Source: Trypanosoma brucei
Taxonomy: Eukaryota
Assembly: GCA_000002445.1 (NCBI GenBank)
Contig: CP000071.1
Coordinates: 2,304,001 to 2,368,000 of the forward strand
DNA length: 64,000 nucleotides
Direction of reading: 5' to 3'
How positions within the stretch are numbered: position 1 is the first letter of the stretch; every line of letters begins with the position of its first letter. Under the pieces are notes generated by a model that had not been told where the DNA came from, made no database searches, and saw only the letters and a program-made list of their open reading frames with translations. Positions 5,226-64,000 of this stretch are shown here, in pieces. The position numbers were made by a program, and so were the translations under genes.

Positions 5226-5491
5226 TTGGAAGGACATTTGCTACACTGCGACTTAACCATGAGGTTGCTGATGACGAAGATACGAGTGTTTCTTGCAGTG
5301 ATGGGAGTTCCATTGGTGCAGTTCTCAGTGATGCCGCTTATCAGGCCGTTGCTTTTATTGAAGCACTACTTGGTGCATTCCCTACTGCGCAGCGTAAGAA
5401 ATTACTTATGCCATTTTGTAACCGATGGGGAGTTTCGGCGCCTCGTAATGTTTCTGATACGTGGGATGCAACCACGTGCCGTAATGTTACA
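5226..5491 (+). pseudogene. F fragment. This is an orphan ~266-bp copy of the cyclase 3'-tail coding region (homologous to ~8922..9188 of the next gene). It diverges after ...TTCRNVT into VTCV* and abuts the trans-splice region of copy 2.
   Basis: ORF 5207..5506 translates to RTFATLRLNHEVADDEDTSVSCSDGSS...NVSDTWDATTCRNVTVTCV*. The same fragment recurs before every array copy. Confidence 0.75.
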
Positions 5492-10200: not shown

Positions 10201-10466
10201 TCGGAAGGACATTTACTACACTGCGACTTAACCATGAGGTTGCTGATGACGAAGATACGAGTGTTTCTTGCAGTGATGGGAGTTCCATTGGTGCAGTTCT
10301 CAGTGATGCCGCTTATCAGGCCGTTGCTTTTATTGAAGCACTACTTGGTGCATTCCCTACTGCGCAGCGTAAGAAATTACTTATGCCATTTTGTAACCGA
10401 TGGGGAGTTTCGGCGCCTCGTAATGTTTCTGATACGTGGGATGCAACCACGTGCCGTAATGTTACA
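10201..10466 (+). pseudogene. F fragment (orphan cyclase-tail remnant) upstream of copy 3.
   Basis: ORF 10182..10481 has the same translation as 5207..5506 with 2 substitutions. Confidence 0.75.
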
Positions 10467-15170: not shown

Positions 15171-15436
15171 TCGGAAGGACATTTACTACACTGCGACTTA
15201 ACCATGAGGTTGCTGATGACGAAGATACGAGTGTTTCTTGCAGTGATGGGAGTTCCATTGGTGCAGTTCTCAGTGATGCCGCTTATCAGGCCGTTGCTTT
15301 TATTGAAGCACTACTTGGTGCATTCCCCACTGCGCAGCGTAAGAAATTATTTATGCCATTTTGTAACCGATGGGGAGTTTCGGCGCCTCGTAATGTTTCT
15401 GATACGTGGGATGCAACCACGTGCCATAATGTTACA
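15171..15436 (+). pseudogene. F fragment upstream of copy 4.
   Basis: ORF 15152..15451. Confidence 0.75.
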
Positions 15437-15451
15437 GTTACTTGTGTGTAA

Positions 15452-15585
15452 TTGAATTTCAACTGCACTCTCTTCTGCTCCCTTTCGTGCCCTTACAGTA
15501 TTGTTGTCTATTATCATTATTATCATTATTCTCTCATTTCTCTTCTTTAAGACTTACGAATTCCTCAAGTCAAGTCACCAGTGTT
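15452..15585 (+). promoter_or_regulatory. Polypyrimidine/AG putative trans-splice acceptor region of copy 4.
   Basis: It is homologous to 5507..5640. Confidence 0.5.
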
Positions 15586-18500: not shown

Positions 18501-19139
18501 GAGTTTGAGCGGCAGCGTGCGGAAGATGATGGGGATTATGTTCCACCCACTGGCCATCTTGACCCTGATGTTTACAGTCGGTTGTGGAATGGACTGCGAG
18601 TGCGTGTTGGAATCCACGCCGGGTTGTGTGATATTCGGCATGATGAAGTGACGAAAGGATATGACTTTTACGGTCGTACATCGAATATGGCAGCACGGAC
18701 TGAGAGCATTGCTAATGGCGGGCAGGTGCTGTTGACACGTTCGACATACCTTTCATTGAGTACTTCGGAGCGTGAGCAATTAAATGTGACTGCATTGGGT
18801 GATGTGCCATTGCGTGGTGTACCCAAACCTGTGGAGATGTACCAATTGAATGCGGTACCCGGAAGGACATTTACTACACTGCGACTTGACCATGAGGTTG
18901 CTGATGACGAAGATACGAGTGTTTCTTGCAGTGATGGGAGTTCCATTGGTGCAGTTCTCAGTGATGCCGCTCATCAGGTTGTTGCTTTTATTGAAGCACT
19001 ACTTGGTGCATTCCCCACTGCGCAGCGTAAGAAATTACTTATGCCATTTTGTAACCGATGGGGAGTTTCGGCACCTTATAATGTTTCTGATACGTGGGAT
19101 GCAACCACGTGCCATAATGTTACAGTCACTTGTGTGTAA
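15586..19139 (+). pseudogene. GRESAG4: Receptor-type adenylate cyclase copy 4, disrupted. A -1 frameshift lies in a homopolymer at ~16610-16616 (ggaaaaaagtggaaac, where the other copies read ggaaaaaaatgggaaac). The C-terminus is replaced by the F-type ending ...TTCHNVTVTCV*. The gene then runs directly into the next copy's splice region with no 3' flank.
   Basis: The ORF track splits the copy into 15442..16671 and 16668..19139 in different frames. The unit length here is 3688 bp, against ~4970 elsewhere. Confidence 0.8.
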
Positions 19140-40966: not shown

Positions 40967-42307
40967 ATGACAAATGAACCATCTGAAGCAGCGACAGCGC
41001 CGACACCGGCAGATTTGAGGCACATTTCGCCATCACCCCCGCGCGTTAGGCCTCAATCATCTGCTGACATGACATCTCAACTTTCTTTTCCTTGCGCCTA
41101 CGCTGCGCGTGTTTATCATGTTTGCACAGAAAATTCCTTTTGCCATCCCCAACCGCCTGATGATGTAAAACTTCCCATGAGGCCCCACAGCAGTGGCGCT
41201 ACGTATCTTGGATGGATACGTAACTCTTTATCTGGTCGCTTAACAGCAAATTGTTACGGTCAAACAAATATCTGCTCATCGAAAGGGTGCGGGATAAATT
41301 GTGGGAATCAAACCATTCAGAGGAGTAGCTCGTCCCTTCCGTGCACAACCGCTACACATCCTGCGAACTCACCAGCTGCATTTGAAGAAGGGAATGGGGA
41401 CGATGTGAGGGATGCATCAGCGCCGGTCCGGCGTACAAATTTCTCGTTGGCGCGGAGGTTGCGGTTACGAGGGCCATTGCACTACCAACGTGTCGTTGAT
41501 GTGGTCCGTCGACTGAGAGTGGAAGGCCATTTATCCAATAAGGAATGTGACGAGTCTTTCAATCGGTTACAACACAACGGGACTAATCCTTGTGCTGTTA
41601 CCAACGGTATTCAAGACGGCAGGGGAGTGCATCACAACATACTCAACTGCAGTGAGGCCGCAACTTCCACGATGTTTTCTCCGGGTCAAACTCAAAGGGA
41701 ATCAAACTCACTTAACCATGCAAGGAATTCGAATTCTGAACCCACTGGTGGAGAAAATACGGGGAATAATCAGAAAACCGAATGTACATATAATTTGCCC
41801 AACTGTGTGACCGGTGTAATTGATGGAGACGCCGAAGTTTTGGATGCAACGGCTGATTCCAGTGTTACATCGGGCGCATCTGTTGTTGATATTGTGGTTT
41901 TGTCGAATGCAGATGGTGGTGATACCGCGGTAATGAAAATGACGAGGGATGTTGTTGTTGTTGCCACTGATGTCGGTGTCGGTGTTGGTGCCGGGCTCAG
42001 TAATGATGTGACAACGGCTAATGTTGAAGCGCGCCGTCGCATTTCTCCTTCAACCGCTTCTCTTGAAAAGGAGAGACGCGGTGGTGATGATGTTGTGGAT
42101 GCTGTTGGCACTGCTGTGGACCGTTCGGCGGGTTCCGTAAAGGGTCACAACTTTAATTGCACCGAGTTTCTTCCCTTTAATGTAGTAGAGGGTGAACTTT
42201 TAAGAAACCGACGTGCATTGGAGCAATTGGTGACAATTTTTGAAGGGACGCTTCATGAGATTCGCAGCGCGTGTGTGGCTGAGGATGATGGCGATGATGT
42301 TGGGTAA
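40967..42307 (+). CDS. Hypothetical protein, 446 aa. It is Ser/Asn-rich with a C-terminal Val/Asp/Gly-rich segment.
   Basis: ORF 40964..42307 (GTG in the track). The first ATG is at 40967. It is on the same strand as all neighbouring genes. No recognisable domain could be identified from the sequence alone. Confidence 0.55.
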   Translation: MTNEPSEAATAPTPADLRHISPSPPRVRPQSSADMTSQLSFPCAYAARVYHVCTENSFCHPQPPDDVKLPMRPHSSGATYLGWIRNSLSGRLTANCYGQTNICSSKGCGINCGNQTIQRSSSSLPCTTATHPANSPAAFEEGNGDDVRDASAPVRRTNFSLARRLRLRGPLHYQRVVDVVRRLRVEGHLSNKECDESFNRLQHNGTNPCAVTNGIQDGRGVHHNILNCSEAATSTMFSPGQTQRESNSLNHARNSNSEPTGGENTGNNQKTECTYNLPNCVTGVIDGDAEVLDATADSSVTSGASVVDIVVLSNADGGDTAVMKMTRDVVVVATDVGVGVGAGLSNDVTTANVEARRRISPSTASLEKERRGGDDVVDAVGTAVDRSAGSVKGHNFNCTEFLPFNVVEGELLRNRRALEQLVTIFEGTLHEIRSACVAEDDGDDVG

Positions 42308-43984: not shown

Positions 43985-45469
43985 ATGGAAGACGCAACGA
44001 AAGAAACATCGGCTCCTGCAACGCCAGAAACACATGACGCTATGGAAGAACATGTGACTGCGCTTGAGGACACAAATACGCCACAAACGGGATCTTTGGC
44101 TAGATTGAAATCTTGCACCCTCGAAACAAACAATCAAACAGTTCCCGCTCCTTTTGAAGCAACATTCAATGATGAACAGCCGCATGGCGCGGCATTGCCG
44201 TTGGAAGGCATTCCTGAAGTAAAGGAAGATGTTCAGTGCGGTGCATACGGGGAGGGGGAGAATAATAATAATAATAATAATAATGACTCTGTTGAGCTTC
44301 GCGGTGAAGCTGAAAAGGAGGAGGTTGATGTGGGCTGCTCCGAGGAGTGTGAGGAGGAGTTTAGCTCAGGTGGGGATGACGCTTCGGCAGCAGAAGAGGA
44401 GGGAGGCGAAACCAAAAGAGCACGCAGGGGGAAGTCGCGCCGGTCGCGCAAATCAGACGGAGGAGATGCGTATAACCCCATCGCTGAGAGTGAATACAAG
44501 GCAATCAGTAAAGATGTTATCAACTGTGTGTGGGGTAACACTTTCCTACAAGCATCAAGTTCCGTGGAGAAGGACTTGCTTCCACCCGAGCTTCTGGAGC
44601 CAATGGAGCGCCGGCGCGTGTTTATAACATCGTCGCAGGCCCGTCGCCTAAAGGCACTCCGTGCGGCCCAAATGATTCAAGAGAAAGACGATACACACGT
44701 TCAGTTTGAAGCGAATGTTGATCTCCCACAGGTCACATTGCCGATACTGCATAATACTTTACGTGTGGAGGGAGATGGATTTGGGAAGGCAAACAAGTCA
44801 GTTGATTCGGCCTCCGACAAAACTGAATACCATGGTTCAAACAGGTGTGATACGGACTCTGATGATGAAGTTGATGGTGCGGGACAACAAGGCGAGAAAT
44901 CTTCTGAGCAGATCGGACATGCCGTGGGGGAGGCGCAGTTGCCACTAATATCAGGATGTGGTAGTCATCCACAGGTTCCCGGTGCAGATGCCAATGGTGC
45001 TCCATCATCCACCCTTCACCCCAAGCCACCATGTTCAAATACATTTCCATGTTCAGTGGCTGAAGACAATGCAGGTGCTGGTGGGAATCCTGTGGATGGT
45101 GGGACACGAGTGTTGCCATTCAGTTTCTTCACTATGGTGCCCATCAAGGATAAACAAAGGGACGTCGTGCCGGGCTCTCGAAATTCGGCTAGTTTGAGTA
45201 AACCACGACTGTCTACTCAGGCGGGCCGTCGCATGTCTAGACGACTGTCAGAGGTGCCGCCACCGAGTGCGCGGTATCCAACACCACCACGACAAGACGG
45301 AGGCGCTCTGCCGCAAAAGTCAGCCACCTCCACCCTTTACGCGTCCGCTGCTGAAAAACTGAGGAGCCAAAATGGAATTTGGGAGGAAATGTATGAAATC
45401 ATTGAGGAGACGCGTGATTCCGTCTTGTATGCCGAAGCAATGGAGGCATCCGGGGAGATGATTGAATGA
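43985..45469 (+). CDS. Hypothetical acidic protein, 494 aa. It is Glu/Asp-rich and has a poly-Asn run (N8) and a basic RRGKSRRSRK patch.
   Basis: An ATG-initiated ORF on the transcription-unit strand. The (AAT)8 at 44261..44284 is in-frame. Confidence 0.55.
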   Translation: MEDATKETSAPATPETHDAMEEHVTALEDTNTPQTGSLARLKSCTLETNNQTVPAPFEATFNDEQPHGAALPLEGIPEVKEDVQCGAYGEGENNNNNNNNDSVELRGEAEKEEVDVGCSEECEEEFSSGGDDASAAEEEGGETKRARRGKSRRSRKSDGGDAYNPIAESEYKAISKDVINCVWGNTFLQASSSVEKDLLPPELLEPMERRRVFITSSQARRLKALRAAQMIQEKDDTHVQFEANVDLPQVTLPILHNTLRVEGDGFGKANKSVDSASDKTEYHGSNRCDTDSDDEVDGAGQQGEKSSEQIGHAVGEAQLPLISGCGSHPQVPGADANGAPSSTLHPKPPCSNTFPCSVAEDNAGAGGNPVDGGTRVLPFSFFTMVPIKDKQRDVVPGSRNSASLSKPRLSTQAGRRMSRRLSEVPPPSARYPTPPRQDGGALPQKSATSTLYASAAEKLRSQNGIWEEMYEIIEETRDSVLYAEAMEASGEMIE

Positions 45470-50228: not shown

Positions 50229-51892
50229 AGCTACTGCTAAGTTTGATGCGACCTTCGCTTCGACGGTTGACGAAGCGATGTGAATAGAGGGGATAAAGCA
50301 GTTATGTATCGTCGAATAGGAGGGTGTAAAAAATGAAACAAAGGTTCAGAGAGAAGGTTATCATAACTAGAGCGGCAGAGGAGTGTCCGTGTTGAAGCGA
50401 GGCAAGTTTGTTTTTCTTTTTTTTTCTTTTTGACTTCCTGAGTGAAGAACAGTTTTGACCGTTTCGCACTTGTTAGACGGCCACGCCCGTGACAAAACGC
50501 TTATCGTAGGGGAAGAAAATAAAAAAATGACAAGACGAAAACGCAGGTAGCAACAAGAGATAGCAAGATGAGATCTGGCGGGAGGGACTTAAAGTTGGAG
50601 AGGTGAAAGGGAATAGAAATGAAGGACATATGCAGAGGCAGAGGTGTTTACGGTCACGTGCCGTTAGAGGAATGGGCTGTGTCGACACATATTTTGCTGT
50701 GAAATTGCTTTTTGCCATCTTGAATGTTTCTTTTTTTTTTCAATTTCGCACCTTTGAGGAAGATGGGATTTGACATACAGACAGGGATGAGTGAGGTGAA
50801 GGGGTTGGGGAAAGGGTCAAGAGGAACCGGTGGTACTGTGTGTTGACCATACTGTTTTTCGTTAAAACGCTTTCATTTCCATTTCCTTTATTTGTGATCG
50901 GCTTCCTCTATCTTGGGAGGATATCATGTCTCTCCATCTTTTTTTTTCTATCTTTTCCTTTCCCTCTTCGACTTTTCATTGTTGACATTTCGTGTGTTTC
51001 TACCCTCTCGCCACAGAACTGAAAATGAGAGGGGTGTATAAATAATAATGGCCTCATATTAAGAGTTTCGCTGAGTGTGTCTGGTGACTGTAGCATATGT
51101 TTGAGTGACATTTGGATATACGTCCTCTGCATACATGATGATTTGACGTGAGAAACTCATCCATGTGTCTCCAGCGTCATTGTAACTTAACTTTCCATCT
51201 GTTGAGTGTTGATGTTGTTGCCATCTTGGTATGTACTTTGTTTATGCGCTTCTTTTTTCCTCTTTCCTCTTTCCCTTTCTCCAATTTTTGTTTTGTATCT
51301 GTGACAGTAGTTTTGCACGTATTTTAGTCACTCAACCAGGTGGTTGTATTTCATATTTCTTCGTTGCGCTTTACTTTGTTGCTTCTTTACGCAAGACCAC
51401 ACGGTTGCACATAACACTTTATTTTTTGTTGTTATTTTGCTTTCCCCCTAACAGAATAAACATACGGGAGAATTAGCGTACGGCAGTTTGTGTGTTTTGG
51501 AGTACGGAGAGGCAAACAAAGGTTGTCCCTCAATTATTTATTGTCATTATTTTTTTATTCTCCTTTTTGCGGGTGGCATCCACCGACTGCGGCTTCGGAA
51601 AAGAGAGGAGGCAGGAGGAGAAAGAAAGTGAGTGTGAGGAGAGGAGCAAAGCAAATAACCGACAGATAGGGGTTGAGGTCGAGCTCTAGGTGTGTTTCGT
51701 AACGAAATCGCCGCGGCCGCTTTCAAGCCGTTGCTGGAAACAAGTTGTCGAAAGGAACGGGGAAGAAAATAGTGTGCGCTTGTTTCTGTACGCAGTAGAG
51801 TGTAGGCATTTATTTATTAATTTGTGGCTGTGAACACTGAAGGGCGACAAAAGAGCCAAAAAGGGATATTTCGCACTCGCGATTTTGCCAAG

Positions 51893-54800
51893 ATGCGTAT
51901 CGAGGTGAAGTTCGCCAGACGGACGATAGTTATATGTCTTGATGACGGTCCTCCGCCACCGCTGCTGCGGGATCTCAAACAGGAACTTTACACCCAAACA
52001 GGTGTACAACCAGCAATGCAGAAACTCTTAGGGAAACCTAAGCTGAATAACCCAGCCAACGACAGCGCATCGCTTGATAGCCTTGGTGTGGGAGACATAA
52101 CAAAACTCATGCTTGTTGGTTCTACAGCTAAAGACATTGTCGCTGCTAACTCTGCTTCAACCGCCGAGGATAGGCGTCAAGAGGAGGTGCATGGGCAAAT
52201 GCTGCACAATGTTGTGCGTAACACATGGTTGACTTGCTCCTTTTCGGGTTTCATGGCGGATCCGTATGTGGGTGGTAAGGGACCGGACTTTGAACACGGC
52301 ACGGTAGAGGCCGCGCTGTTACTGCTTGATGTGGCGGTAACTCGCATTAATACACTTGGTGTTAACAGCATGGCGAGTAATGGGGCTGGTGACGGTAGCA
52401 CTGGAGGTCCTGTGGGTCTTCAGCTGCTGCAGACGATAGGCACTGAGGGACAATCTGCGATATCACATCCACTCCTGCGTCACCTAAACGCTCTGGAACG
52501 ACAAGCCATACAGAGAGCTCATGGTGTGTTGCGCCGCTGCTTTCATTTGACTGTGATGGCGAAAAGCGCGGTGAACCCACCAGAGGTGGTTAAGGTAGTG
52601 GCAAAGGTAGTGTCTATAGTTAACGGCCTAAGTGTCGGGGAATGGGTGATGTTGCCAGGTGGGTGGACGGGGATGAAATCCCATACTGTCATTTACCTCT
52701 TAATCCAGCGTGAGTCAGCGGAGGAATTTAATGTCGTTGTAGTGAACCGCGCCGCGGATGGAAGCGAATATCATCCATCGTGGCAGACACGAGAAAAAAT
52801 TGTGGCTTGTCCTTTCTTGCGTTTTGATCATGTGGCGGGGGCACGGCTGCTTGACCGTGCCTTCTGGTTGTTGTTACTTTCTCTTTGGATGAGAAGCAAC
52901 GCACCCGGTCCACGTTCGGAGTTTGTGCGGGCGGAGGTGTTTTATGATGTTCTACTTCCGTGGCTGGTGGAGCGCCCACCGACTAGAAGCAACCGCCAGA
53001 GCAGTACGGTCAGTAGTGGTTCACTGCGTTCCGCTACAGAGATGATTTTAAGATCCTCTTCAAATGAGGGCGTAGACGCAGCAGAGGCTGAGGGAAGCGG
53101 CAGCCAGACAACCCTTCCCAGCGCTGTTCAAAGCTACGGGGCCACTGTGGCACGCAATTGCTCTGGAAGTATTAAGGGAGCAGTCACGTCACTTTTATAT
53201 CTTCTCGAGCAGTATGGCATGAAGGAGAGGGCTGTGCAAAAATCTGTGAAGTATGCACTAAAGTATGAATTTATGATGAGGGCGGCAGAGGATTTGGCTG
53301 CCCTCGCCGACCGCTTTCTTAAGAGTGCTGGAAACTGGGAGGGTAGCGATACCGGCGAAAGGCAAGGTCTAACGACCGATAAGAATTTCGAATGTTCACG
53401 CGTTGAGCGGGCTTTGAATGAGTTGCGTTCGGCTGGCGTAGGTCATACGGTGTCACCTATCAGCACCAAGGAATTATTCCGCACTGCACACGAGAAAAAT
53501 ATAATATTTACGAACGACAAGAACATTATTCTGAGCCAGGAACATTTCTCAAACAAACCACTTCTTGTCTACTGCGGAGGGCTGCAGGACCCCGCCTCGG
53601 CCAGGTTTTCCACACTCCTCGCTGAAGCGGTCGATCAGTTCCGCCTCTCCTCACCTCAGGTCGAGCTGTTGTTTCTCAGCTGTGATGACACAAAAGAGAG
53701 GTACGAGCGGCACATCGCCATGTTTTCGTTCGCTCGTGCCGCTTACCCCTGCGATGTGCTCGTGAGGAAATTGTACGTAACAGAAGTTCCCAAATTGTTG
53801 CTTTTTGGGCCGGATGGTCGGCTGCTGCACCGGCGCGGTGTCGACGCACTCCGTGCCGATCCGTCAGCAACGTTGTTTCCGCATGGTGGCTTGTGGAACG
53901 GCGCGATGCCGTTGACTGCAACAGACGTCGCTATTCTGAAAAGCGGTGCTGCTGTGCTCGCTCACCACACACGGAAGCGGCTTGCCATAACCAACAGCGC
54001 GATTTCTGAGAGGGATGGCTTCATTCCAGTTGGTGAAGCCAGACGCGTGTTACGGATTCTTTCTGCGGTGTGCACCATGGTGGAGCTGATTCCGAAGGAA
54101 CCAAACATAGCGGAGGGCTTTTTAATACAGAACACGACAAAAAATGATGTACATAATAACATGATTGAGGGTGTTGCTACTCCCCAGACTCAGAAGGACG
54201 CTGCTCTGGTTGGCCAACTGTTCACTCTGTCAGATATTGTTGAAGGGAATAATAGTGGCGGTGGAGACAGCAGCGGCTGTGGTGGAAGTTGCGGTCGCCA
54301 TGAGTGCGGGGTGCCGATGGAGGCGGTTGCATTTCTTAACGGGAGCCTCTTGCCTGCAACATCAACAGAGGCGTACAAAGGTCAGCCGCTCCGAACAGCC
54401 GTTCCCGAGGTGCAAAGCCTTACCGACCTGAGGCCCGTTACAAGTTGGGCGCAGCTCCATTTCACGTTGAAGCGTGCGGAGGCCATCATTGACGCTTTAT
54501 GGTTGCGGGCACGCCACAGCGGTACCACCTCGCGCGTAGCGATTCAAATGCACATTATTGAGGTTATTTCTTGGCTCTTTTTGTTTATTATACCACTTCC
54601 GCTACCTCGCGGTATGGACGTGCGCAGCGTGCCCGAAGAAGAGAGGAGTACAGTTGCTGAGTTTTATACAGTGGACGCCTTCCCATCGGCACCAACAGGG
54701 GATGGCTCCGGCGCGAACGGTGGTCGTGCAACAGATGTGCAGGGTGGATTGCAGGAGTCCATCTATTCGCTCATGCTTTCGTTCACTAACGCCTGGCAGG

Positions 54801-57800
54801 CGGTTGAGGTGCCGACACGTGCTTTTGATGCTGAGCGAGGCATAACGGCAATGGAAATGCTTGTCGTATATGATGCGGTTGCTCGGCACACCGCAAATAG
54901 TGCCAGTAGTGTTAATAGTAGATTACTTGCTTCAATGTTAAACTGCGACGGCGGTTACTATCTTTCGACTTCCATGGGGGGGCGGAGTCTTAGTTTTGCT
55001 CAGGTAAGCGCTTCCATGGAGCTGGTTCGGCCGCAGATGTTGATTCGGCGGTCTGCCCTCCTGCGGTACATAACGGAACAACAGCGAAGGTGCGCACATG
55101 AATTGTTTGACCTCCCTATGACAGATAAGTTAGAGGTGCGGAAAAACAGCGTCACAGTGGGGTTCCTTCGTAAGTTGCTTGACAACTGCGGATATCGTCT
55201 GGCGGAAACGAGTGGTCCGTCGATGTTCACAGCTGCTGGTGGTAGCGGGGGAAGTGAGATGGAACAGTTAATGCAGTGGTTTTGTAGTGCACGGAGTCCG
55301 CTCGCGAGAGATCATCCAGAGTTTGGTCAGCTTCGGGACATGGTGCTGCTTACCAAGTTCCTTGTCACTATGGAGATGCGCGACGCACAGTTGCTTAGAC
55401 GCCGCCGTCAGCCCGACGGGGATGGTGGTGGAAGGGGCGCGACGACGTGGCGGCTTACATTTGATGCGGACACGCCAGGATCGCAAATGAGTGCTGGTTG
55501 GCGTACGAAGCCAATGCCACCGCACTGGGAGTGTATGCTCGTGCGTGGTCGTGACAGTGACATAGCAGATATTGTTGTGACTGGGTTCGGAGGTCGTGAA
55601 CTTTTATATGGTGAGGGTTTGGTGCTCCATTCCCCGATTGACGTTGGCGTCATGCTGGGGATTGAAAGCGCAACGGAGGACGATGTGTTACACGCGGTTG
55701 CTTCAAAGTTGCCCACATTTGGAGGTGCGATGAGCGCTGAAGAGTCCGAGGTTCTACTTTCATGCCTCACCGCACCGTATCTCAGACTACCACTCGTACT
55801 GAATTTCTTTGCTTCACAAAGCCACCACACATATCTCTTTAATGCGGCGGTGCAGAGCCTCTTTCGAGCGGCTCTTTTTGAACCTGGGGCATTTACCACT
55901 CAGCAGCAGCAGAGCCAGTTAGAGCCAGAGCTTGTGCCGATGCGACTGAACAGGAGGCAACGTGAGGAAATTGAGCAAAGGCGACTCATCGGAGACCTTT
56001 CGGCTGTGAACTATGAAGCGTGCCTCGGCACGCCATATGGACTTCTATTGAATGAGTTGCAGCACAGCCCAGATGCCGTGTTGGTTCCTTTGCACCGTAT
56101 TCTTGTGGGTATAGAAGATATTGGACCATCCTCTGTTTACAGCGCCAACGCTTCCTACGTGCTCTTCATTGTTGGTGTTGTGTGCGATGTGCTCGCGTTT
56201 TGCAACCTTGCGCGGGAATTGCGGGATCGAGAGCTTTCCGGCGACGGAGCGGCACCAGGGGCGGTGAGAGATGTGCTCACATCCTTCGTTACAACTGTGC
56301 TTCAGTTTCTTGTCGAAATTGTTAGACCTATGTTGTTACTGTGGTGCACGGAGGGTGAAGAGAATGACGACACACCAACACAATGCGTTGTTCACAGCTA
56401 TATGGCCTCCATACATCGTGCTGCATGGAAATATATAGTGCCAACGACCTCATCAAACTCACCGTTATCACCGACGGCCCTTTCGTCATCGAATCACTTA
56501 ACTTCCCTGCTACAGTCGTGTTGTTTCGTTCGAGCGCGGCACAGCTTTGGCCTGGGGATGCAACGCACGCAGGTTGCGATGCAGGAGGGTGACAAGCTGC
56601 TGACACCAAGGGAACAGTTGTTGCGTTTCCTGCAGGCACAGGGACTTGATACGGCGGATATTTCACATGATGCACTTGAAGAGAGCCAGCGGCTTATGTT
56701 GAGTGGGGGGCGTAGGCGAGCTGTTTTTGTGCAAATCCGTAGCGCATACCACAGGGACACCATTCGAGTACCGAATTTATACCGCAGTGACGCACGCAAT
56801 ACGACCGAGTCCAAGCAGCTAAAACTACCACCAGCAGATGTGCCCGAGAATGTTATATTCGGCTACTTGTTGGAGGACCACAAGGACGTGTTGCATTTCT
56901 TTTCTTCTATTGGTGCCGAACAGATGTCAGTTGTGTTTAAACTCATTGTTCACACTGTCCTTCGTGATCATACCCAGGGACGTGGTAGCCGGCGCATGGA
57001 AGAGAAGAAAGTACGCAGTAACAATTGCGAAAATGCGGTTGGCACTGAAGGCAACGCGGAAGTAAGTGGGGGCATTGCGCCAACACCAACGTTCCCTCGC
57101 CATGGTACCAAAAATGAAGTTGTGCCACAGCCGGTAAATGAGGATCATGCGGAACTTTCCGCGGTTTCTGTGGTCCGTGGAGGCGATGGCCACTTGGGTG
57201 AATCATGGAAACAGACTTCACCGGGTGTGTACCGCGGGCCAGTGTCAACAGGTCTTGTTTTTCATGCCCATACGTGCGAACTCTTTTGGCGGAATGACGA
57301 GCTGAAGCCCGTGCCCGACAGTATGTCACATTTCAGTGACTTCAAGACCATAATTGGTAACGATGTGCTGCAGTGCGGTCTCGTGAGCCGTAGTCGTAAC
57401 TACCATTGGGTGCACATCGTAGGCACTCCTTTTGACGTGGTGGAATGGACCCCACACGACCCACTCGATCAGGGTGTAGGCGCGCCTCTGGTGCTTTCAG
57501 GCGAACTGCCTAAAGAACCCGTCACTTCTGCCAGTTTTGACGGTCTGATGTTCAACCGCCCTGTTGATGTTTATGATGAGGTGCCATGGCTGAACCAGTC
57601 TGAGCGCTGGGCGGTGGATCTTCTGCGTGCGGTCCTTCGGTATAAGTATTCTGCGAACGACATGAAATACTTTCCCGTTGCTCAAGCTGAGAGCCCATCC
57701 GCGCCGCTCCATCAAAATAATGACGGAAAGGAGGTCCGTAAGGGCAAGGGTGATGGGGTCAGGGTCATGCGCTTTATTATGAACGATGGTCCCCAGTATA

Positions 57801-60800
57801 CAGATGAAGATAACCGCGCAACATGGAAGGAAATAGTCGCTTACCGCCTGCCGAGCCCACACCTGCATGTATTCAACCTTGTGCCCCATGCGCGACGTGT
57901 ATACCGCTCACTGGTGTTTACATCAAACCAGCGTTGGTGCCTTCACAGTTTGCCCCCAATCACTGGGCCGCGGCCACACGATCAATTACATTTGCTAGCG
58001 TTTCAAGCGGGCGAGTTGGACCGACGTGTGCAATGCGAAGGTTCCATTGAAATTCATCGCTATAACAGCGAACTTGGCATGCGCGAAATGTACGTTCCGG
58101 CCCAGTTGCTACAAGGCGTCTTGCCCAGTGTTTTGCTCGAGGTGTTTCTTTTCTGGCAGGATGAGGAGGATAATATTCGCGGTTACTCCACAGCTGACGC
58201 CCAAGACTACTGGTTCAACTACACGTTGTTTGTACGGCTACGCAGCGGCAAGGGTGTGGGCGCAAAGGGTGGTATCCTGCATAACTTCCGCGGGGGTGAA
58301 TGGGAGTGCGTCGTTACCCGACGCAATAACACCCAGAAGTACTGTGCGAATGCCAGAAAGCGGCCGCGGAGCCGAAGCACAGCCGCAAGTGAAGTCGACG
58401 GAAAGCACCAGAAACAACTGTCGCCACAATGGGAAAATGAGGAAGAGGCAGGGACGGCTGCCGCGGAACAGCATATTACGGACGCACAGGTGTCACTAAT
58501 GCACAGCAGCCTGACGTTTCTCACAGCCACCGCCTGTCGAACTCTCCTCCAGCGGACAAAGGGCGACATCCATAGTGCTATTTCATATGCTCTTGACCCT
58601 GCCAATCAGGATGACGTTATGCTGCTTGTGAGCACGGAGCAACGTAAAGAAAGTGAAAGTGAGGGCGATGAGGAAGAGACGGAACAGCCGTGTATATCAA
58701 AAGAACGCCGACATCGGGGACATAGCGGGAACAATGCGGGGGAAGAGCTTACGCTCCTCAACCTCACGCAGAGTGCGAGGCTCTTCCCTCTTCTGCACCT
58801 GCTTACAAGACTAGAAGATTGCTCCCACATTTTGTTATGGGGCCGCGTTAACTCGAAGGACGGCTCCTCTCGGCGTTGCCAACGGGGACGAGAGGACCGG
58901 CGGAGATGCGAGGAGAATGAGGAGGAGGGCATTGACAAGTGTTCTGTGGCTGATGTCGTGTTGATTGAGCTCCCACGGCTGTGTATAACATTCTACCCTC
59001 ACGTTGACACCGCCACTGGGAGCCTCCGTTTGCACCTTGCCGACCACCCTGGCTGGTACATTGCAGAGGCGACAGATTATATTAGTGGCGTGCAAAACTT
59101 CCTTCCACAGCTTCAGGAGCCATTTCAGCAATACGTGACTCTTTGTAACAGCACAGCTGGCTTTGCTCTAATGGTACCAAACCACGACTTCACTCCAATG
59201 GTAGTGAGTGACGACCCTTTCAACAAGCTACTTCTATTCGATCGCTCATCGTTGCGGTGGAAGGAGCGTGTTGCGTCAACTTTCTACCTTTACACGGTTC
59301 ACCCCTGCAGGAGTTTCCTTGTACCACCCAGTCTCGCCGCGTCGCTTTATTATGTCGTACTGCAGTGCGCTACAGGCCATTACGCGGCTGCCATGCGCAC
59401 TTTGGAGTCGTGCTATACTGACAGTACATTCACAACTGAAGAGTGTTTTATGTTTACACTTATGGGCAGAACGCTGGACGATCAGCATCCCGATGCCCAT
59501 GCGGTACGACTCAAGCTGGCTCATGCTGTATTGTACGGTCCACAGAAACCCCAATGGCCGTTACACACCGAAGTTGCTGCATATCTTCAGAAGAAGCGGC
59601 ATGTCTCTCGTGCGTGTCAGCTCACACGGGAAGAGTTAATCGATTTGATGCGCCGCTGCAACAGATCCTTGCCAATTGTGCACGCGCAGTTGCAACTGTG
59701 GGCAGCCCTAGAGAAAGAGGAAGAGAAACTGCGGTTATCGAATGACACCGACGCTGACACTAACGTTGTTCCCTCCCCAGAGACGGTTGTGCGCTTGGAC
59801 ACGCCTCTTATGCATCGCTGCGGGCAGCCATGGGAGCGTTTGTTATTATATCAGTGGACACACATTTCTTCTCAGAGGCCTCGGCGTATAACTTATAAGG
59901 TCCTGGACGAGAAGGCACTAGAAGATGAAGAGCTGGTAAAGTTCATATGGAAGGATACCCTTCTTTCAGACGAGGAGAGTGGGGGCAACAGCAGACTGGG
60001 GTTTTATTTCTTGTACTCCCTTAAACAAGGCGGAACCGCGCAGCCTAAACTTGCTGGTGAGGATGTGCGTGTAACTTTATGCCAACTACTGACTCGTTGG
60101 TTTCACCTACGGCACTCCCGTTGGGGACGGGAGGAGCAACAAGATGGCGAAGCAGAGTCGCGTCCGTCGTGGTGTGGGGCTGTGCTACAGTTGATGGACA
60201 TTCACCCTGAGGCGGGATGGCCGGCGCCACCAAACTCCAGGCATTTACTTCACCGCATGAATAATGGTGTGAGCGTGGTCGAAACCAGAGAAGTGGATGA
60301 ATCAGAGTCGGTTGTGGCGCTGATGGACAGACCGTCACCGGAGCTCGTGGAGTTTTACCGCAAGGTAGAACAGGTAGCGTGTAATTTGCATGGGAACAGC
60401 CAGGTCGTACAGCAGCGGCGTGGGGACCTACTACTTAGCATAGCAGTAACCTCGGCGAGAAGAGTTGCTCACGTTCACATGAGAGACCACCTGCAACCTC
60501 GTATCGTCCCCTCTAACACTGCTATGGAATGCCTTCAGGTTTCATTTGGCTCTTTACTATCAGCAGTGCCGAATGTATCACGTGACGATGGGGTGGGTAA
60601 GGATGCGGAGGAGGAGCATGATAAGTTGATGAGTGCCGGCAACCCGTGGTATCGACGGCTGACGGCTCTCTTTGGCGCCCCACTTAGTGATATGCCCTGC
60701 AGTGCCCATTTAATTTGTACCGAACAGCTGACGCACGAAGATGACCCCGGCGACGGACGTTGTGGCGATTGCTTACCCCAGCTTCCTTTCGATCTTCGTA

Positions 60801-63800
60801 AGCTCCCACGGTGCAACACCCCTTTGGCAAAGAACATGCTCGATCGTCTTGAGGCCGATGTTGGTAATTTTGCAATGAAGCAGCGCCAGTGCTTGTCAAG
60901 AACCCTAACTGCGTTCTCGCAGGAGAGACTATACGCCATTTTGCGCAGTCGCTCCACAATCTTTGCTACCCGTCAAGTTTACGCGGAGGTGACTTGTGAG
61001 CTTCAACGGTGCATTGATGAGCTGTCCGCGTTGGCTGCTAGTGACGAAGCGCTCGTGCATGAACTCACTGCTTCTATACTACACTCCGCCAACGACGTGT
61101 GTAGATCTGACTGTGCAGACGAGGATGCACCTGGTGACGAAGAGGATTTGCTCCGTGCGTGCGATTACCAGCTACAGCGTATAAAGGGTGACCAGTGCCC
61201 AGTCCCCTTAGAGTGGTTGCTCTGTTCGCTATTAAGTACTGAAATGGATGCTGATCTGCAAGCGGTCAACCCATTTCATGGCGGCACGAAACTGTTGCAG
61301 GCGCAGTTACTTCTCCTCACGGTGCTGACCAATCGTTGTCATATTGCGCAACAAGCGAAGCAAGCGGTCAGACAAGTGGTGCTGTTCCTCGAACTCTGCG
61401 CGCTGCTCAGAGGCATGGACGACGGGTGCAAGTATGAGGCTTCAGCAACAAGGTCTTTCCCAGTATCGCATTGCGGTGATGACATGGGAGTGATGGAGTG
61501 TCACGACGCTTCAATATCGTGGTTGCAGGAGTTGCTGCAACTTTTTTCTATCGGGGTGGATGTTGACATGTTGTTTAAGGGTGAAGGTCAGTCCACAGAT
61601 GGCAACCTCCAGCTCAACAAAGGCAGCAACACCAGCAGTCACAATGGTTTGTGTTGCCGCTGCCTGCCTGAAGATTTGCTGCAGGTGCTAGAGAGCCGTC
61701 TGCAGCATCTATCGAATGAAGTTATCGAAGCGCTGACAGTGAGGCGCTACTGCACTGATCTTTCGTGCGATGGTTGTGGTGACTCCTCCACTGTTGTGAC
61801 ACTCGACCCGCGATACCTAATGTTTGAGTTCATTCACAACATTTTGCTTCGAGCACGACAGGTGGAGATGGTGCGTTGGTTTGTACAGAACATTAATGCT
61901 GGGGTGTCACGGGTTCAGCAGATGATTATGGGCCAAGGGAAAACCACAGTCGTTGGTCCCCTGCTTGCTCTGATTCTTGCTGATGGACAGCAGCTTGTCA
62001 CGCAGGTTATGCCAACGGCGCTGCTAGAGCAAACCAGCGTTATTCTTCGACGGTGTTTTAGCGTAGTAATACCTAAACAGATTTACACTCTGAAGTTTGA
62101 CCGCTCCTTCGATGACAGTGATAGCAGCCAAGTGAACTTGCTGAAGCAGAAGCTCACGGCAGCTACCCGAAAGCGAGGCATTCTCATTTCTGCTCCAGAG
62201 TGTGTCAAATCGGTATTTTTAAAGATGATTGAGCAACTCCACTTGGTTGAATCTGTAATGACAGAGTATATCGATGCAGAAGATGGGAAAGTGGCCGCGT
62301 GCGATACGGCCGATGAGCGTGTCGCCGTCCGAAAACAGGAGCTTATGCACCGTACAAGACAACGTTCCTCCATGGCTGATGCTATCGTTCCCATCCTGCA
62401 GCTGTGGCAACGTGGGGTTCTTATAATGGATGAGGTGGACGTTCTTCTTCACCCACTCCGGTCGGAACTTAACTTTCCCATTGGTTTAAAGCACCCCATT
62501 GAACTTAGTGGCCCACGCTGGGTTCTTCCCATGCATTTACTTGACGCCATATTTTTTTACCAGAGAAGACGTACAACGACTGCGGACGGAGACGCGCATG
62601 GGGCCTTCGGGGACGGACACGTCAAGGCAACCGCCATCAGGTTAGAGGGTCATCCTGCAGGTGTAGGGGAGGACGTGCAAAATGAAATTCTTGGCCGCAT
62701 TTGTGATGTTATTGCTATGGGTTATGAGACTCGAGCACTGCAGAGGGAACCGCATCTTGTGCTTCTTGATAGTCTATATTACAATGATCAACTCCTTCCC
62801 GCGTTGCTCCCTTGGGCGCAACTGTGGTTATACAGACATTTTCAACTCGAGAAGCATGCTTGTTTGCTGGGTCACGCTACGGGGCTCGCTGCGTCGTTAG
62901 GATGGCGCCAGTTCTTGGAGATTACAACATTGTTTTTAAAGTTGAGGGAGCGACCTTCAAGGGACAGTTCAATTGCATGCGTCATTAACTCCACATTCAG
63001 CCCATTGGGCATACAACTACTTTGCCTCTCACACGACTGGCTTCATCGTATCATGCCGCATGTGCTCTCGAAGATCGACCGTGTGGGCTTCGGTCTGCTC
63101 CAGGAGCGGGAATTGGCGTTACTGTCATCAGAAGCACGTGACCGAATGCCGCTTAGCCGACGGACGATGGCCGTGCCATTCGTCGCCAAAGATGTCCCAA
63201 GCCTTAGCTCCGAGTTTGCCCACCCCGACGTAGTGATTGGATTGACAGTATTGGCATATCGTTACGAGGGCATGCGCTTTGCTGACATGAGGGATTTGCT
63301 GTTGCAACTAAAACAGGACTTCGTCCGGCAGTCCGGGCCCGAGGATCACCGGCCGGCGGCAAAACTGTATACGCAATGGTTGCGGCTCAGTCTGAGTTGC
63401 TCTGCTGAAACCGAGCCGACCTCACACGGGGGAGGAATACTGCCTCGAGTAGTGCCGTCTGAAATCACAACCATGGGAACTACATGTGTTGAAGCCACGA
63501 ATGATCGATCTGGTATTCCCCTATCTCAGCTTCAGGTAACAGATGAGGTAGCACTTCATGCATTGTACCTGCGTTTACGACGTCTGCCGGATGTGATTCA
63601 CTACTACCTTTCTTCACACATATTCCCGAGAACTATGAGCTTTCAAGCGTTGAAGATAAGTGCCTGTGGGCATGAGCTTGGTTCCTCCATGCTATTCACC
63701 CGCCGCATTGGTTTCAGCGGAACACCTAGCAACTTACTGCCGCTTGATCTCGGTGATTGTTTCTATGAACCTGGGAGCGATGGACGCGTGTTGTCTGTTT

Positions 63801-64000
63801 TAACAAATCCCCAAGTGGTAACGGTATTACCGTTGCAATCAGATTGGACACCACTTCGACTGCTCGACCAAATTGCGTCTTCGCGGAGTCAGCCTTTCCA
63901 TGCACTTATCGATGCTGGAGCACTAATAACGAACATGGACAATGAGACTGTTGCCCGTTACTTGCTTAGCCGACTGTCAGCTGATCTTTTTGACGGTGTT
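51893..64000 (+). CDS. Giant hypothetical protein, N-terminal >4035 aa, with the 3' end outside the window. A P-loop NTPase signature is present: Walker A GQGKTTV at 61931..61951 and a Walker B-like LIMDEVD at 62420..62440.
   Basis: Frame 2 is open from the stop at 51818-51820 to the window end (~12.1 kb) with the first ATG at 51893. It is absent from the ORF track only because no stop is reached. The opposite-strand and off-frame ORFs in this span are all short. Confidence 0.8.
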   Translation, partial: MRIEVKFARRTIVICLDDGPPPPLLRDLKQELYTQTGVQPAMQKLLGKPKLNNPANDSASLDSLGVGDITKLMLVGSTAKDIVAANSASTAEDRRQEEVHGQMLHNVVRNTWLTCSFSGFMADPYVGGKGPDFEHGTVEAALLLLDVAVTRINTLGVNSMASNGAGDGSTGGPVGLQLLQTIGTEGQSAISHPLLRHLNALERQAIQRAHGVLRRCFHLTVMAKSAVNPPEVVKVVAKVVSIVNGLSVGEWVMLPGGWTGMKSHTVIYLLIQRESAEEFNVVVVNRAADGSEYHPSWQTREKIVACPFLRFDHVAGARLLDRAFWLLLLSLWMRSNAPGPRSEFVRAEVFYDVLLPWLVERPPTRSNRQSSTVSSGSLRSATEMILRSSSNEGVDAAEAEGSGSQTTLPSAVQSYGATVARNCSGSIKGAVTSLLYLLEQYGMKERAVQKSVKYALKYEFMMRAAEDLAALADRFLKSAGNWEGSDTGERQGLTTDKNFECSRVERALNELRSAGVGHTVSPISTKELFRTAHEKNIIFTNDKNIILSQEHFSNKPLLVYCGGLQDPASARFSTLLAEAVDQFRLSSPQVELLFLSCDDTKERYERHIAMFSFARAAYPCDVLVRKLYVTEVPKLLLFGPDGRLLHRRGVDALRADPSATLFPHGGLWNGAMPLTATDVAILKSGAAVLAHHTRKRLAITNSAISERDGFIPVGEARRVLRILSAVCTMVELIPKEPNIAEGFLIQNTTKNDVHNNMIEGVATPQTQKDAALVGQLFTLSDIVEGNNSGGGDSSGCGGSCGRHECGVPMEAVAFLNGSLLPATSTEAYKGQPLRTAVPEVQSLTDLRPVTSWAQLHFTLKRAEAIIDALWLRARHSGTTSRVAIQMHIIEVISWLFLFIIPLPLPRGMDVRSVPEEERSTVAEFYTVDAFPSAPTGDGSGANGGRATDVQGGLQESIYSLMLSFTNAWQAVEVPTRAFDAERGITAMEMLVVYDAVARHTANSASSVNSRLLASMLNCDGGYYLSTSMGGRSLSFAQVSASMELVRPQMLIRRSALLRYITEQQRRCAHELFDLPMTDKLEVRKNSVTVGFLRKLLDNCGYRLAETSGPSMFTAAGGSGGSEMEQLMQWFCSARSPLARDHPEFGQLRDMVLLTKFLVTMEMRDAQLLRRRRQPDGDGGGRGATTWRLTFDADTPGSQMSAGWRTKPMPPHWECMLVRGRDSDIADIVVTGFGGRELLYGEGLVLHSPIDVGVMLGIESATEDDVLHAVASKLPTFGGAMSAEESEVLLSCLTAPYLRLPLVLNFFASQSHHTYLFNAAVQSLFRAALFEPGAFTTQQQQSQLEPELVPMRLNRRQREEIEQRRLIGDLSAVNYEACLGTPYGLLLNELQHSPDAVLVPLHRILVGIEDIGPSSVYSANASYVLFIVGVVCDVLAFCNLARELRDRELSGDGAAPGAVRDVLTSFVTTVLQFLVEIVRPMLLLWCTEGEENDDTPTQCVVHSYMASIHRAAWKYIVPTTSSNSPLSPTALSSSNHLTSLLQSCCFVRARHSFGLGMQRTQVAMQEGDKLLTPREQLLRFLQAQGLDTADISHDALEESQRLMLSGGRRRAVFVQIRSAYHRDTIRVPNLYRSDARNTTESKQLKLPPADVPENVIFGYLLEDHKDVLHFFSSIGAEQMSVVFKLIVHTVLRDHTQGRGSRRMEEKKVRSNNCENAVGTEGNAEVSGGIAPTPTFPRHGTKNEVVPQPVNEDHAELSAVSVVRGGDGHLGESWKQTSPGVYRGPVSTGLVFHAHTCELFWRNDELKPVPDSMSHFSDFKTIIGNDVLQCGLVSRSRNYHWVHIVGTPFDVVEWTPHDPLDQGVGAPLVLSGELPKEPVTSASFDGLMFNRPVDVYDEVPWLNQSERWAVDLLRAVLRYKYSANDMKYFPVAQAESPSAPLHQNNDGKEVRKGKGDGVRVMRFIMNDGPQYTDEDNRATWKEIVAYRLPSPHLHVFNLVPHARRVYRSLVFTSNQRWCLHSLPPITGPRPHDQLHLLAFQAGELDRRVQCEGSIEIHRYNSELGMREMYVPAQLLQGVLPSVLLEVFLFWQDEEDNIRGYSTADAQDYWFNYTLFVRLRSGKGVGAKGGILHNFRGGEWECVVTRRNNTQKYCANARKRPRSRSTAASEVDGKHQKQLSPQWENEEEAGTAAAEQHITDAQVSLMHSSLTFLTATACRTLLQRTKGDIHSAISYALDPANQDDVMLLVSTEQRKESESEGDEEETEQPCISKERRHRGHSGNNAGEELTLLNLTQSARLFPLLHLLTRLEDCSHILLWGRVNSKDGSSRRCQRGREDRRRCEENEEEGIDKCSVADVVLIELPRLCITFYPHVDTATGSLRLHLADHPGWYIAEATDYISGVQNFLPQLQEPFQQYVTLCNSTAGFALMVPNHDFTPMVVSDDPFNKLLLFDRSSLRWKERVASTFYLYTVHPCRSFLVPPSLAASLYYVVLQCATGHYAAAMRTLESCYTDSTFTTEECFMFTLMGRTLDDQHPDAHAVRLKLAHAVLYGPQKPQWPLHTEVAAYLQKKRHVSRACQLTREELIDLMRRCNRSLPIVHAQLQLWAALEKEEEKLRLSNDTDADTNVVPSPETVVRLDTPLMHRCGQPWERLLLYQWTHISSQRPRRITYKVLDEKALEDEELVKFIWKDTLLSDEESGGNSRLGFYFLYSLKQGGTAQPKLAGEDVRVTLCQLLTRWFHLRHSRWGREEQQDGEAESRPSWCGAVLQLMDIHPEAGWPAPPNSRHLLHRMNNGVSVVETREVDESESVVALMDRPSPELVEFYRKVEQVACNLHGNSQVVQQRRGDLLLSIAVTSARRVAHVHMRDHLQPRIVPSNTAMECLQVSFGSLLSAVPNVSRDDGVGKDAEEEHDKLMSAGNPWYRRLTALFGAPLSDMPCSAHLICTEQLTHEDDPGDGRCGDCLPQLPFDLRKLPRCNTPLAKNMLDRLEADVGNFAMKQRQCLSRTLTAFSQERLYAILRSRSTIFATRQVYAEVTCELQRCIDELSALAASDEALVHELTASILHSANDVCRSDCADEDAPGDEEDLLRACDYQLQRIKGDQCPVPLEWLLCSLLSTEMDADLQAVNPFHGGTKLLQAQLLLLTVLTNRCHIAQQAKQAVRQVVLFLELCALLRGMDDGCKYEASATRSFPVSHCGDDMGVMECHDASISWLQELLQLFSIGVDVDMLFKGEGQSTDGNLQLNKGSNTSSHNGLCCRCLPEDLLQVLESRLQHLSNEVIEALTVRRYCTDLSCDGCGDSSTVVTLDPRYLMFEFIHNILLRARQVEMVRWFVQNINAGVSRVQQMIMGQGKTTVVGPLLALILADGQQLVTQVMPTALLEQTSVILRRCFSVVIPKQIYTLKFDRSFDDSDSSQVNLLKQKLTAATRKRGILISAPECVKSVFLKMIEQLHLVESVMTEYIDAEDGKVAACDTADERVAVRKQELMHRTRQRSSMADAIVPILQLWQRGVLIMDEVDVLLHPLRSELNFPIGLKHPIELSGPRWVLPMHLLDAIFFYQRRRTTTADGDAHGAFGDGHVKATAIRLEGHPAGVGEDVQNEILGRICDVIAMGYETRALQREPHLVLLDSLYYNDQLLPALLPWAQLWLYRHFQLEKHACLLGHATGLAASLGWRQFLEITTLFLKLRERPSRDSSIACVINSTFSPLGIQLLCLSHDWLHRIMPHVLSKIDRVGFGLLQERELALLSSEARDRMPLSRRTMAVPFVAKDVPSLSSEFAHPDVVIGLTVLAYRYEGMRFADMRDLLLQLKQDFVRQSGPEDHRPAAKLYTQWLRLSLSCSAETEPTSHGGGILPRVVPSEITTMGTTCVEATNDRSGIPLSQLQVTDEVALHALYLRLRRLPDVIHYYLSSHIFPRTMSFQALKISACGHELGSSMLFTRRIGFSGTPSNLLPLDLGDCFYEPGSDGRVLSVLTNPQVVTVLPLQSDWTPLRLLDQIASSRSQPFHALIDAGALITNMDNETVARYLLSRLSADLFDGV

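Follow-up and report, generated by a model that had tools for sequence, protein, structure and literature searches.

What protein is encoded by the giant open reading frame (ORF) that runs off the end of this stretch of Trypanosoma brucei DNA, and what might such a protein do? The stretch, hereafter the window, comprises 64,000 nucleotides of chromosome 8 of Trypanosoma brucei brucei TREU927, and every long ORF in it lies on the + strand. About 83% of one gene, counted from its start, falls within the window. It is the T. brucei orthologue in an ancient family whose giant products (~4,200-5,800 amino acids) carry the Pfam domains DUF3638 and DUF3645 and occur across eukaryotes, plus one case in Chlamydiales. 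The gene itself is already known: it is annotated in the T. brucei reference genome and belongs to a catalogued Pfam family. The best overall explanation of its product, which we consider likely, is a DUF3638/DUF3645 giant that acts as an ATP-driven superfamily 2 (SF2) motor, is directed to ubiquitin-marked targets and is catalytically reduced in trypanosomes. Read from the N-terminus, its domain order is a ubiquitin-like (UBL) domain, a papain-like domain of the AnkH/AnkD type (hereafter the N-domain), a tryparedoxin-like domain, ~2,600 residues of family-specific sequence with a UBA-like stretch, and an SF2 ATPase that combines DUF3638 with an insertion containing DUF3645 (Table 1).

The ORF occupies frame 2 of the + strand, which stays open between 51821 and 64000 (4,060 sense codons), with an in-frame TAA just before it at 51818-51820. 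Its first ATG is at 51893, from which 4,036 codons extend to the end of the window with the frame still open; the C-terminus of the protein falls outside the window. Position 51893 is likely the genuine start: five full-length euglenozoan orthologues have their first residue at the aligned methionine (Met1 is invariant in the alignment). The preliminary description of this DNA, made from the sequence letters, had reported an ORF of more than 4,000 codons that stays open past the window end and is far longer than chance would allow, and both points hold. A run of 4,060 stop-free codons has a probability of ~10^-80.6 when computed from base composition, and neither a stop codon nor a frameshift interrupts the span. 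Over the same 12.2 kb the remaining five frames contain 118-245 stops each, with a longest open run of 166 codons. The GC content at codon positions 1, 2 and 3 of the giant ORF (0.61/0.43/0.53) follows the pattern expected of coding DNA. No tandem repeats were found within the gene in a scan of the window DNA, no internal repeats in its protein product, and no match to an Rfam family anywhere in the window.

Three Pfam families score above their gathering cut-offs in the product, namely DUF3638 (PF12340; E 2.8e-29, 102.5 bits, cut-off 31), DUF3645 (PF12359, C-terminal to DUF3638; E 4.6e-15, 55.1 bits, cut-off 25) and Thioredoxin_8. NCBIfam and PADLOC gave no matches for the ORF. A DUF3638/DUF3645-type family had been named tentatively in the preliminary description, which also proposed a profile search of the translated product; the assignment was correct, since both models pass their Pfam cut-offs. 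With residues ~3250-4036 as query, we found 142 relatives of the ATPase module, with all motifs conserved, in dinoflagellates, oomycetes, green algae, haptophytes, trypanosomatids and many metagenomes. Stand-alone prokaryotic versions of the module (~1,120 amino acids) were considered and rejected, as they are really gene-caller fragments of giant eukaryotic genes.

A homologue search with the N-domain profile returned one match only, and an exhaustive profile search of representatives was used in its place. This search identified five intact full-length euglenozoan giants of 4,233-4,889 amino acids: Tco025E_02741 of Trypanosoma conorhini (XP_029230213.1; 4,699 amino acids), three kinetoplastid-type proteins (4,616-4,889 amino acids) and a transcript of Entosiphon sulcatum (4,233 amino acids). 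Residues 1-4036 of T. brucei align end to end with residues 1-3876 of T. conorhini at 54% identity. Because 823 residues of the T. conorhini protein remain past the aligned end, ~820-860 further codons are expected beyond the window, and the complete T. brucei protein probably has ~4,860-4,900 amino acids. Identity to the other three kinetoplastid-type giants is 38-45%, and to Entosiphon 31-50% over three colinear blocks; the dinoflagellate and metagenomic giants are likewise colinear with the T. brucei ORF in blocks. Hundreds of alignment columns, including all ATPase motifs, are invariant across Euglenozoa. T. brucei shares with the DUF3638/DUF3645 giants the domain order, full-length colinearity, the UBL, the N-domain, the thioredoxin-like domain and the UBA position, and we found no essential difference from them; its copy is cut by the window end.

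In Angomonas deanei the locus is syntenic (the giant gene follows a pyrophosphatase gene), colinear with the whole ORF and continues for ~856 further codons. The A. deanei orthologue (LR877146.1, L001:1829-15389; GCA_903995115.1) is spread over at least 10 reading frames and annotated as many small genes; either assembly indel errors or decay of the gene would account for the broken frames. That the T. brucei ORF might itself be a decaying pseudogene or an assembly artefact could be argued from this fragmented relative, and is hardly credible in view of zero stops across 4,060 codons, the end-to-end identity to T. conorhini, the columns invariant across Euglenozoa and the existence of intact full-length orthologues.

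All motifs of the ATPase appear intact in trypanosomes, as judged from their sequences. The preliminary description had placed a Walker A motif at 61931-61990, and GQGKTTVVGPLLALILADGQ lies exactly there (residues 3347-3366), with the G, G, K and T of the motif at least 90% conserved among 97 homologues. It had also named a Walker B-like motif; VLIMDEVDVLLHP is present, at 62417-62455, 3 nt downstream of where it had been put, and D3513, E3514 and D3516 are invariant in the same 97 homologues. Lys3350 and Asp3513 are 163 residues apart, close to the ~165 first given. The P-loop module thus described is present, and only its characterization as solitary needs revision, because the orthologues continue with what look like motifs of a second RecA lobe: past the window end they carry FDQVHTTGTDVKQ (motif V-like) followed by YAQGAYRMRGVGKGQ (motif VI-like). 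HTTGTD and QGAYRMRGxGKGQ come directly after the aligned end and were seen in the orthologues only.

An AlphaFold2 model of the ATPase region (predicted local distance difference test, pLDDT, 80.9) has a RecA-like N-lobe fold with Walker A (GxGKT) and motif II (DExx), which are the features of SF2. GFSGTP is invariant and sits on model strand E648-655; by its pattern, and from general knowledge of SF2 enzymes, we take it to be motif III-like. The consensus of the insertion between motifs II and III is strongly conserved among the 97 homologues; its secondary structure and pLDDT were taken from the model. The most conserved element of the insertion is DUF3645 (AVPFVAKDVPS..SEFAHPDV.IGL), which is invariant across Euglenozoa. 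These features bear on the midasin-like alternative raised in the preliminary description. A midasin-like or other AAA+ giant would share the giant size and the presence of a P-loop, and is practically out of the question: the protein has one P-loop only, its fold is the RecA-like one of SF2 together with a DExD motif II, no AAA or AAA+ family of Pfam matches, and no MIDAS or vWA domain occurs in the window or in the full-length orthologues.

SecA is the top structural match of the ATPase model. In the giant, DEVD is followed by 15 residues, the last of which is Gly (LLHPLRSELNFPIG), and this length equals that of the DEVD...IISG segment of SecA, whose Escherichia coli counterpart was checked in PDB 2fsf. 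The ~400-residue insertion also starts at the point after motif II that is equivalent in E. coli SecA, but contains DUF3645. The giant further differs from SecA in being eukaryotic, in having its ATPase embedded in ~4,900 amino acids with ubiquitin-related modules, and in that no SecA scaffold or wing domains were identified in it. Judging from the model, the relation of this ATPase to SecA and the SF2 helicases would lie at the level of the fold only. A SecA-like polypeptide motor, whose insertion would take the part of the preprotein-binding domain while polypeptides marked with ubiquitin are pushed or unfolded, draws on this structural match and seems quite unlikely to us. The margin over other SF2 enzymes is small, Pfam and NCBIfam report no SecA family, neither phmmer nor profile searches recover a SecA chain, and we identified neither the helical scaffold of SecA nor its two-helix finger.

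Nucleic acids are the substrates of most SF2 enzymes; SecA moves polypeptides. A more specific version of the motor hypothesis takes RNA or DNA as the substrate, and the giant would be a nucleic-acid helicase or translocase, for example a remodeller of RNA, ribonucleoproteins or ribosomes, with the ubiquitin modules serving recruitment or regulation only. We regard this as conceivable and on balance doubtful, as Pfam detects no nucleic-acid-binding domain in T. brucei or the full-length orthologues, no solved helicase shows profile similarity even at E<=10, and both the top structural match and the segment after motif II resemble SecA.

Most of the ORF had initially been described as devoid of recognisable motifs. 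This does not apply to its N-terminal part, in which we found UBL, protease-like, tryparedoxin-like and UBA-like stretches. The UBL of T. brucei matches the UBL of UBLCP1 in PDB as a single sequence (phmmer, E 1.2e-4), and the orthologue profile matches ubiquitin in PDB (E 7e-15); the orthologues from Angomonas and Entosiphon score above the cut-off of the Pfam family "ubiquitin". The tryparedoxin-like domain is the third Pfam match in the ORF (Thioredoxin_8; E 1.1e-14, 54.9 bits, cut-off 27), and its orthologue profile matches tryparedoxin structures (E 2.8e-15). It belongs to the same sequence and fold family as tryparedoxin and nucleoredoxin, but their WCPPC/WCGPC active site is replaced in T. 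brucei, and no dithiol redox chemistry is therefore expected. DPAS (in QDPASARF) stands in place of CGPC, so that both cysteines are replaced relative to plasmoredoxin (WCKYC) and to WCGPC homologues. Trypanosomatids lack the CxxC, whereas Entosiphon and several algal and metagenomic family members keep it.

Downstream, the conserved family-specific region can be aligned colinearly with giants from dinoflagellates, euglenids and metagenomes (31-36% identity), and many of its columns are invariant. Residues ~790-3300 match no Pfam family and no solved structure and contain no internal repeat, yet their conservation extends from kinetoplastids to dinoflagellates. At one aligned position of this region, three homologues (P0139, E 1.9e-8; P0189; P0232) have UBA domains recognised by Pfam, from which we infer that residues 2196-2236 of T. 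brucei are UBA-like.

The N-domain carries a conserved block with the consensus PGGW.G…ER…CNTG.G.EYHP…YDVLLPWL…RTPQRS, and its profile recovers 1,089 cluster representatives at E<=1e-3. No Pfam family covers the domain in any of the family members analysed, including those with an intact triad. Its AlphaFold2 model (pLDDT 83.3; predicted TM-score, pTM, 0.83) has a papain-like fold of the CE-clan or AnkH/AnkD type, and Foldseek ranked the Legionella protein LegA15 first (probability 0.99). The corresponding AnkH domain has a CE-clan-like cysteine-protease fold with H243, D258 and C324, in which the His starts a strand, the Asp ends an antiparallel strand and the Cys starts a helix (PMC6712400); the residues in LegA15 are H268, N290 and C361 (PMC9757750). 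In our model, Thr265 starts strand 140-149, Asn285 lies just past strand 154-160 and Gly425 is the first residue of helix 301-316 (strands and helix in segment numbering). The His, Asn and Cys columns of the family are thus located where the AnkH triad is placed, at the strand start, the antiparallel strand end and the helix start. T. brucei has Thr265, Asn285, Ala420 and Gly425 at the His, Asn, Gln and Cys positions, and the catalytic set of His, Asp/Asn and Cys with an oxyanion Gln is accordingly incomplete in it.

The full pattern GHA … CNTG … Q….C is found in 13 of 85 family members, with ~20 residues between His and Asn and ~95 between Asn and Cys. His and Cys are kept or lost jointly (13/7/1/64 among the 85 members, Fisher p 1.3e-9). 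T. conorhini, Angomonas, a Leishmaniinae-like orthologue and Entosiphon resemble T. brucei in lacking both residues; trypanosomatids have lost His, Gln and Cys, whereas one subset of the family keeps them. We interpret the N-domain as protease-like, still intact in some family members and apparently catalytically dead in Euglenozoa. A different histidine, His294 (in EYHP, window 52772-52774), is kept in 83 of the 85 members, including all those that lost the putative catalytic His and Cys.

Compared with Legionella AnkH (LegA3, PDB 6mca) and AnkD (LegA15, PDB 7ew8/7kj6), the N-domain has ~10% identity and no profile-level match, the ankyrin repeats of those proteins are absent from the giant, and the catalytic His, Gln and Cys are replaced in T. 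brucei. The chemistry of the shared fold is itself unsettled, because no protease activity of AnkH was ever demonstrated in vitro (PMC6712400) and a report describes LegA15 as a GTPase that uses its Cys (PMC9757750).

UniRef labels several relatives (T. conorhini, Strigomonas, Angomonas, Phytophthora and Symbiodinium) as "ubiquitinyl hydrolase 1". The corresponding explanation, an active deubiquitinase whose ATPase would assist substrate engagement, could also call on the CE-clan-like fold of the N-domain and on the complete His-Asn-Gln-Cys set kept in a subset of the family and in a protein from Chlamydiales (see below). We consider it very unlikely for T. brucei, in which the catalytic His, Gln and Cys are replaced by Thr265, Ala420 and Gly425; the euglenozoan relatives named above lack these catalytic residues too. 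Across residues 1-3300 no Cys is invariant in at least 7 homologues. No OTU, USP, UCH, MINDY, Josephin/MJD, ZUFSP, JAMM or VTD match was obtained with Pfam, including the full-length orthologues, or with profiles against PDB, and we found no experimental basis for the name in the literature. The label is not supported for the T. brucei protein by anything testable here. A link of DUF3638 proteins to the VTD (herpesvirus-tegument-like) deubiquitinase domain was likewise discarded, since Erven et al. 2022 tie VTD to Helitrons and not to this family.

After the second ATPase lobe, the orthologues continue with an acidic linker, a conserved region of ~550 amino acids and three zinc fingers, two NZF-type and one RanBP2-type. 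Angomonas and four of the five full-length euglenozoan giants have two fingers of the form W.C..CTF(L/I)N; the first finger of T. conorhini reads CTLLN. The Thr-Phe pair is the mark of ubiquitin-binding NZF fingers. The orthologue fingers weakly match the NZFs of HOIP, TAB3 and Npl4, and the NZF-type ones reach 25 bits for Pfam Zn_ribbon_RanBP, just under its cut-off of 27.

Taking these modules together, we propose that the SF2 ATPase would work as an ATP-driven motor and that non-catalytic ubiquitin readers (the NZF fingers, the UBA-like stretch and perhaps the dead protease domain) would bring it to substrates marked with ubiquitin or ubiquitin-like proteins. The giant may also dock to ubiquitin receptors through its own UBL. 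Hydrolysing ATP, it would then remodel the bound substrate, be it nucleic acid or polypeptide, or translocate it. The alignments show the loss of the protease His, Gln and Cys and of the thioredoxin CxxC in trypanosomes, where the ATPase would be the only live catalytic centre. The ancestral form probably coupled the motor to an active isopeptidase-type cysteine protease and a redox-active thioredoxin, a form that may still be seen in other lineages. In function, such a protein would be analogous to the RQT complex, in which the SF2 helicase Slh1/ASCC3 has ubiquitin-binding partners, and to p97-Ufd1-Npl4, which contains an NZF; both are established ATP motors directed by ubiquitin. We claim no homology here: unlike these complexes, the giant has all modules in one polypeptide, and it has no sequence relation to ASCC3 or p97.

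Several observations weigh against the proposal of a ubiquitin-directed motor. Ubiquitin binding is suggested by the domain types only, the UBL and UBA-like stretches of T. brucei fall below the Pfam thresholds on their own, and the NZF fingers and second ATPase lobe are seen in orthologues only, outside the window. The ~2,600 residues of family-specific sequence could hold the real effector domain. For the ATPase, SecA is ahead of other SF2 enzymes by only about 1 Z unit, and a profile of the module searched against PDB has no link to any solved helicase, even at E<=10. For the N-domain, the assigned catalytic residues are those indicated by a predicted structure and an alignment, and its profile shows no link to AnkH or AnkD in PDB. 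The literature searched contains no biochemical or genetic data on any family member, and a 2025 paper calls the function of DUF3638 undefined.

We also scanned prokaryotes, with one genome per species, and detected two loci with the ATPase module. The first, with 40% identity to the module, is on a contig of a metagenome-assembled genome (MAG) labelled Anaerolineaceae (PABI01000099.1, L005:4206-6236); it was rejected as probable eukaryotic contamination because its ORFs are fragmented on both strands. The second is in a Chlamydiales MAG (JBDQID010000018.1, L006:142-9381) and consists of a single ORF of 3,079 amino acids with 40% GC and the same architecture as the eukaryotic giants. DUF3638 scores 72 bits in it, above the cut-off, the second ATPase lobe is present, and its N-domain has the complete GHA / FNAG / QRAGTC set. 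This ORF is a candidate for inter-kingdom transfer or for an effector. Together with the fold match to AnkH and AnkD, it suggests that the module was exchanged between eukaryotes and intracellular bacteria of amoebae; the case is thin, comprising one MAG and similarity at the fold level only.

All these elements can be joined in one wider reading, which we find unlikely as a whole. The giants would represent an undescribed class of ubiquitin-directed SF2 motors with SecA-like topology, in which an AnkH/AnkD-type isopeptidase and a redox-active tryparedoxin domain were ancestrally coupled to ATP-driven remodelling. Trypanosomes would have kept the motor only, with the dead protease reading ubiquitin or ubiquitin-like proteins, and Legionella AnkH and AnkD and the 3,079-residue Chlamydiales protein would have been derived from this eukaryotic lineage by gene transfer from amoebal hosts.

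Table 1. Position and basis of the features assigned to the giant ORF (window coordinates; residues counted from the ATG at 51893)
Feature	Residues	Window position	Strand	Basis
Giant ORF, open at window end	1-4036	51893-64000	+	Open frame, orthologue alignment
Integral UBL domain without C-terminal Gly-Gly	1-78	51893-52126	+	phmmer, profile
AnkH/AnkD-type cysteine-protease-like domain with helical cap, predicted to be catalytically degenerate	125-480	52265-53332	+	Model
Tryparedoxin/nucleoredoxin-like thioredoxin fold without CxxC	554-643	53552-53821	+	Pfam, profile
Conserved family-specific region	~790-2800	54260-60292	+	Colinearity with other giants
Putative degenerate UBA-like stretch	2196-2236	58478-58600	+	Alignment to homologue UBAs
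DUF3638, core of SF2 ATPase N-lobe	3305-3553	61805-62551	+	Pfam
Walker A / motif I, GQGKTT	3347-3352	61931-61948	+	Sequence, homologue conservation
Walker B / motif II, DEVD	3513-3516	62429-62440	+	Sequence, homologue conservation
Mostly helical N-lobe insertion (~400 residues) between motifs II and III	~3532-3936	62486-63700	+	Model
DUF3645	3754-3785	63152-63247	+	Pfam
Motif III-like, GFSGTP	3940-3945	63710-63727	+	Invariant, on N-lobe strand
Start of ATPase C-lobe, cut by window end	~3990-4036	63860-64000	+	Orthologue sequence

Three ORFs of the window match exactly Tb927.8.7960, Tb927.8.7970 and the vacuolar pyrophosphatase Tb927.8.7980. The giant ORF comes next after the pyrophosphatase and by this position is probably Tb927.8.7990. 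Tb927.8.8000 was considered as an alternative name, and three observations argue against it. That gene is the axonemal docking protein dDC4, whose Leishmania mexicana orthologue was described as having no detectable domain (PMC11971395); its paralogue on chromosome 4 adjoins the chromosome 4 pyrophosphatase (PMC2212663), which gives a pairing of chromosomes 4 and 8; and the synteny with Angomonas, in which three small genes separate the giant gene from a lipase gene, speaks against it as well. We found no literature on the giant gene or its accessions.

Upstream, the window contains a tandem array of seven GRESAG4-type receptor adenylate cyclase genes (3-32951) with 92-99% DNA identity. These encode the Pfam domains Peripla_BP_A-cyclase and Guanylate_cyc, and the window start truncates the first copy. 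A 264-nt copy of part of the 3' region of the gene is present in most of the ~1-kb spacers of the array (for example at 5228-5490 and 10202-10465). One cyclase copy (15430-19136) is split into the overlapping frames 15430-16668 and 16581-19136 and, lacking the usual spacer, runs directly into the following copy at 19118; this split copy is likely a frameshifted or recombined pseudogene.

Between the array and the pyrophosphatase gene, an ORF of 1,747 amino acids (34138-39378, + strand; Tb927.8.7950 by position) has no Pfam match at E<=1e-3. An antisense open frame of 313 codons inside it (37563-38501, - strand) is probably a chance effect in GC-rich coding DNA. Tb927.8.7960 (40967-42304) and Tb927.8.7970 (43985-45466) are annotated as "T. 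brucei spp.-specific" and have no Pfam domain; we found relatives of the two only in the T. brucei, T. equiperdum and T. gambiense group.

The DUF3638/DUF3645 giants are among the largest conserved proteins across protists, fungi and algae and are catalogued and functionally uncharacterised. The dissection given here turns a domain of unknown function into testable statements: the SF2 motor is intact and has its insertion at a SecA-like point, modules related to ubiquitin may serve for reading, and a protease domain of the AnkH/AnkD type appears intact in some lineages but dead in trypanosomes. Through the shared fold, the Legionella effectors AnkH and AnkD, the chemistry of which is disputed, also gain a counterpart in eukaryotes. 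Because T. brucei is genetically tractable and its copy seemingly has only one catalytic centre still alive, what the motor contributes should be separable by point mutations in the ATPase.

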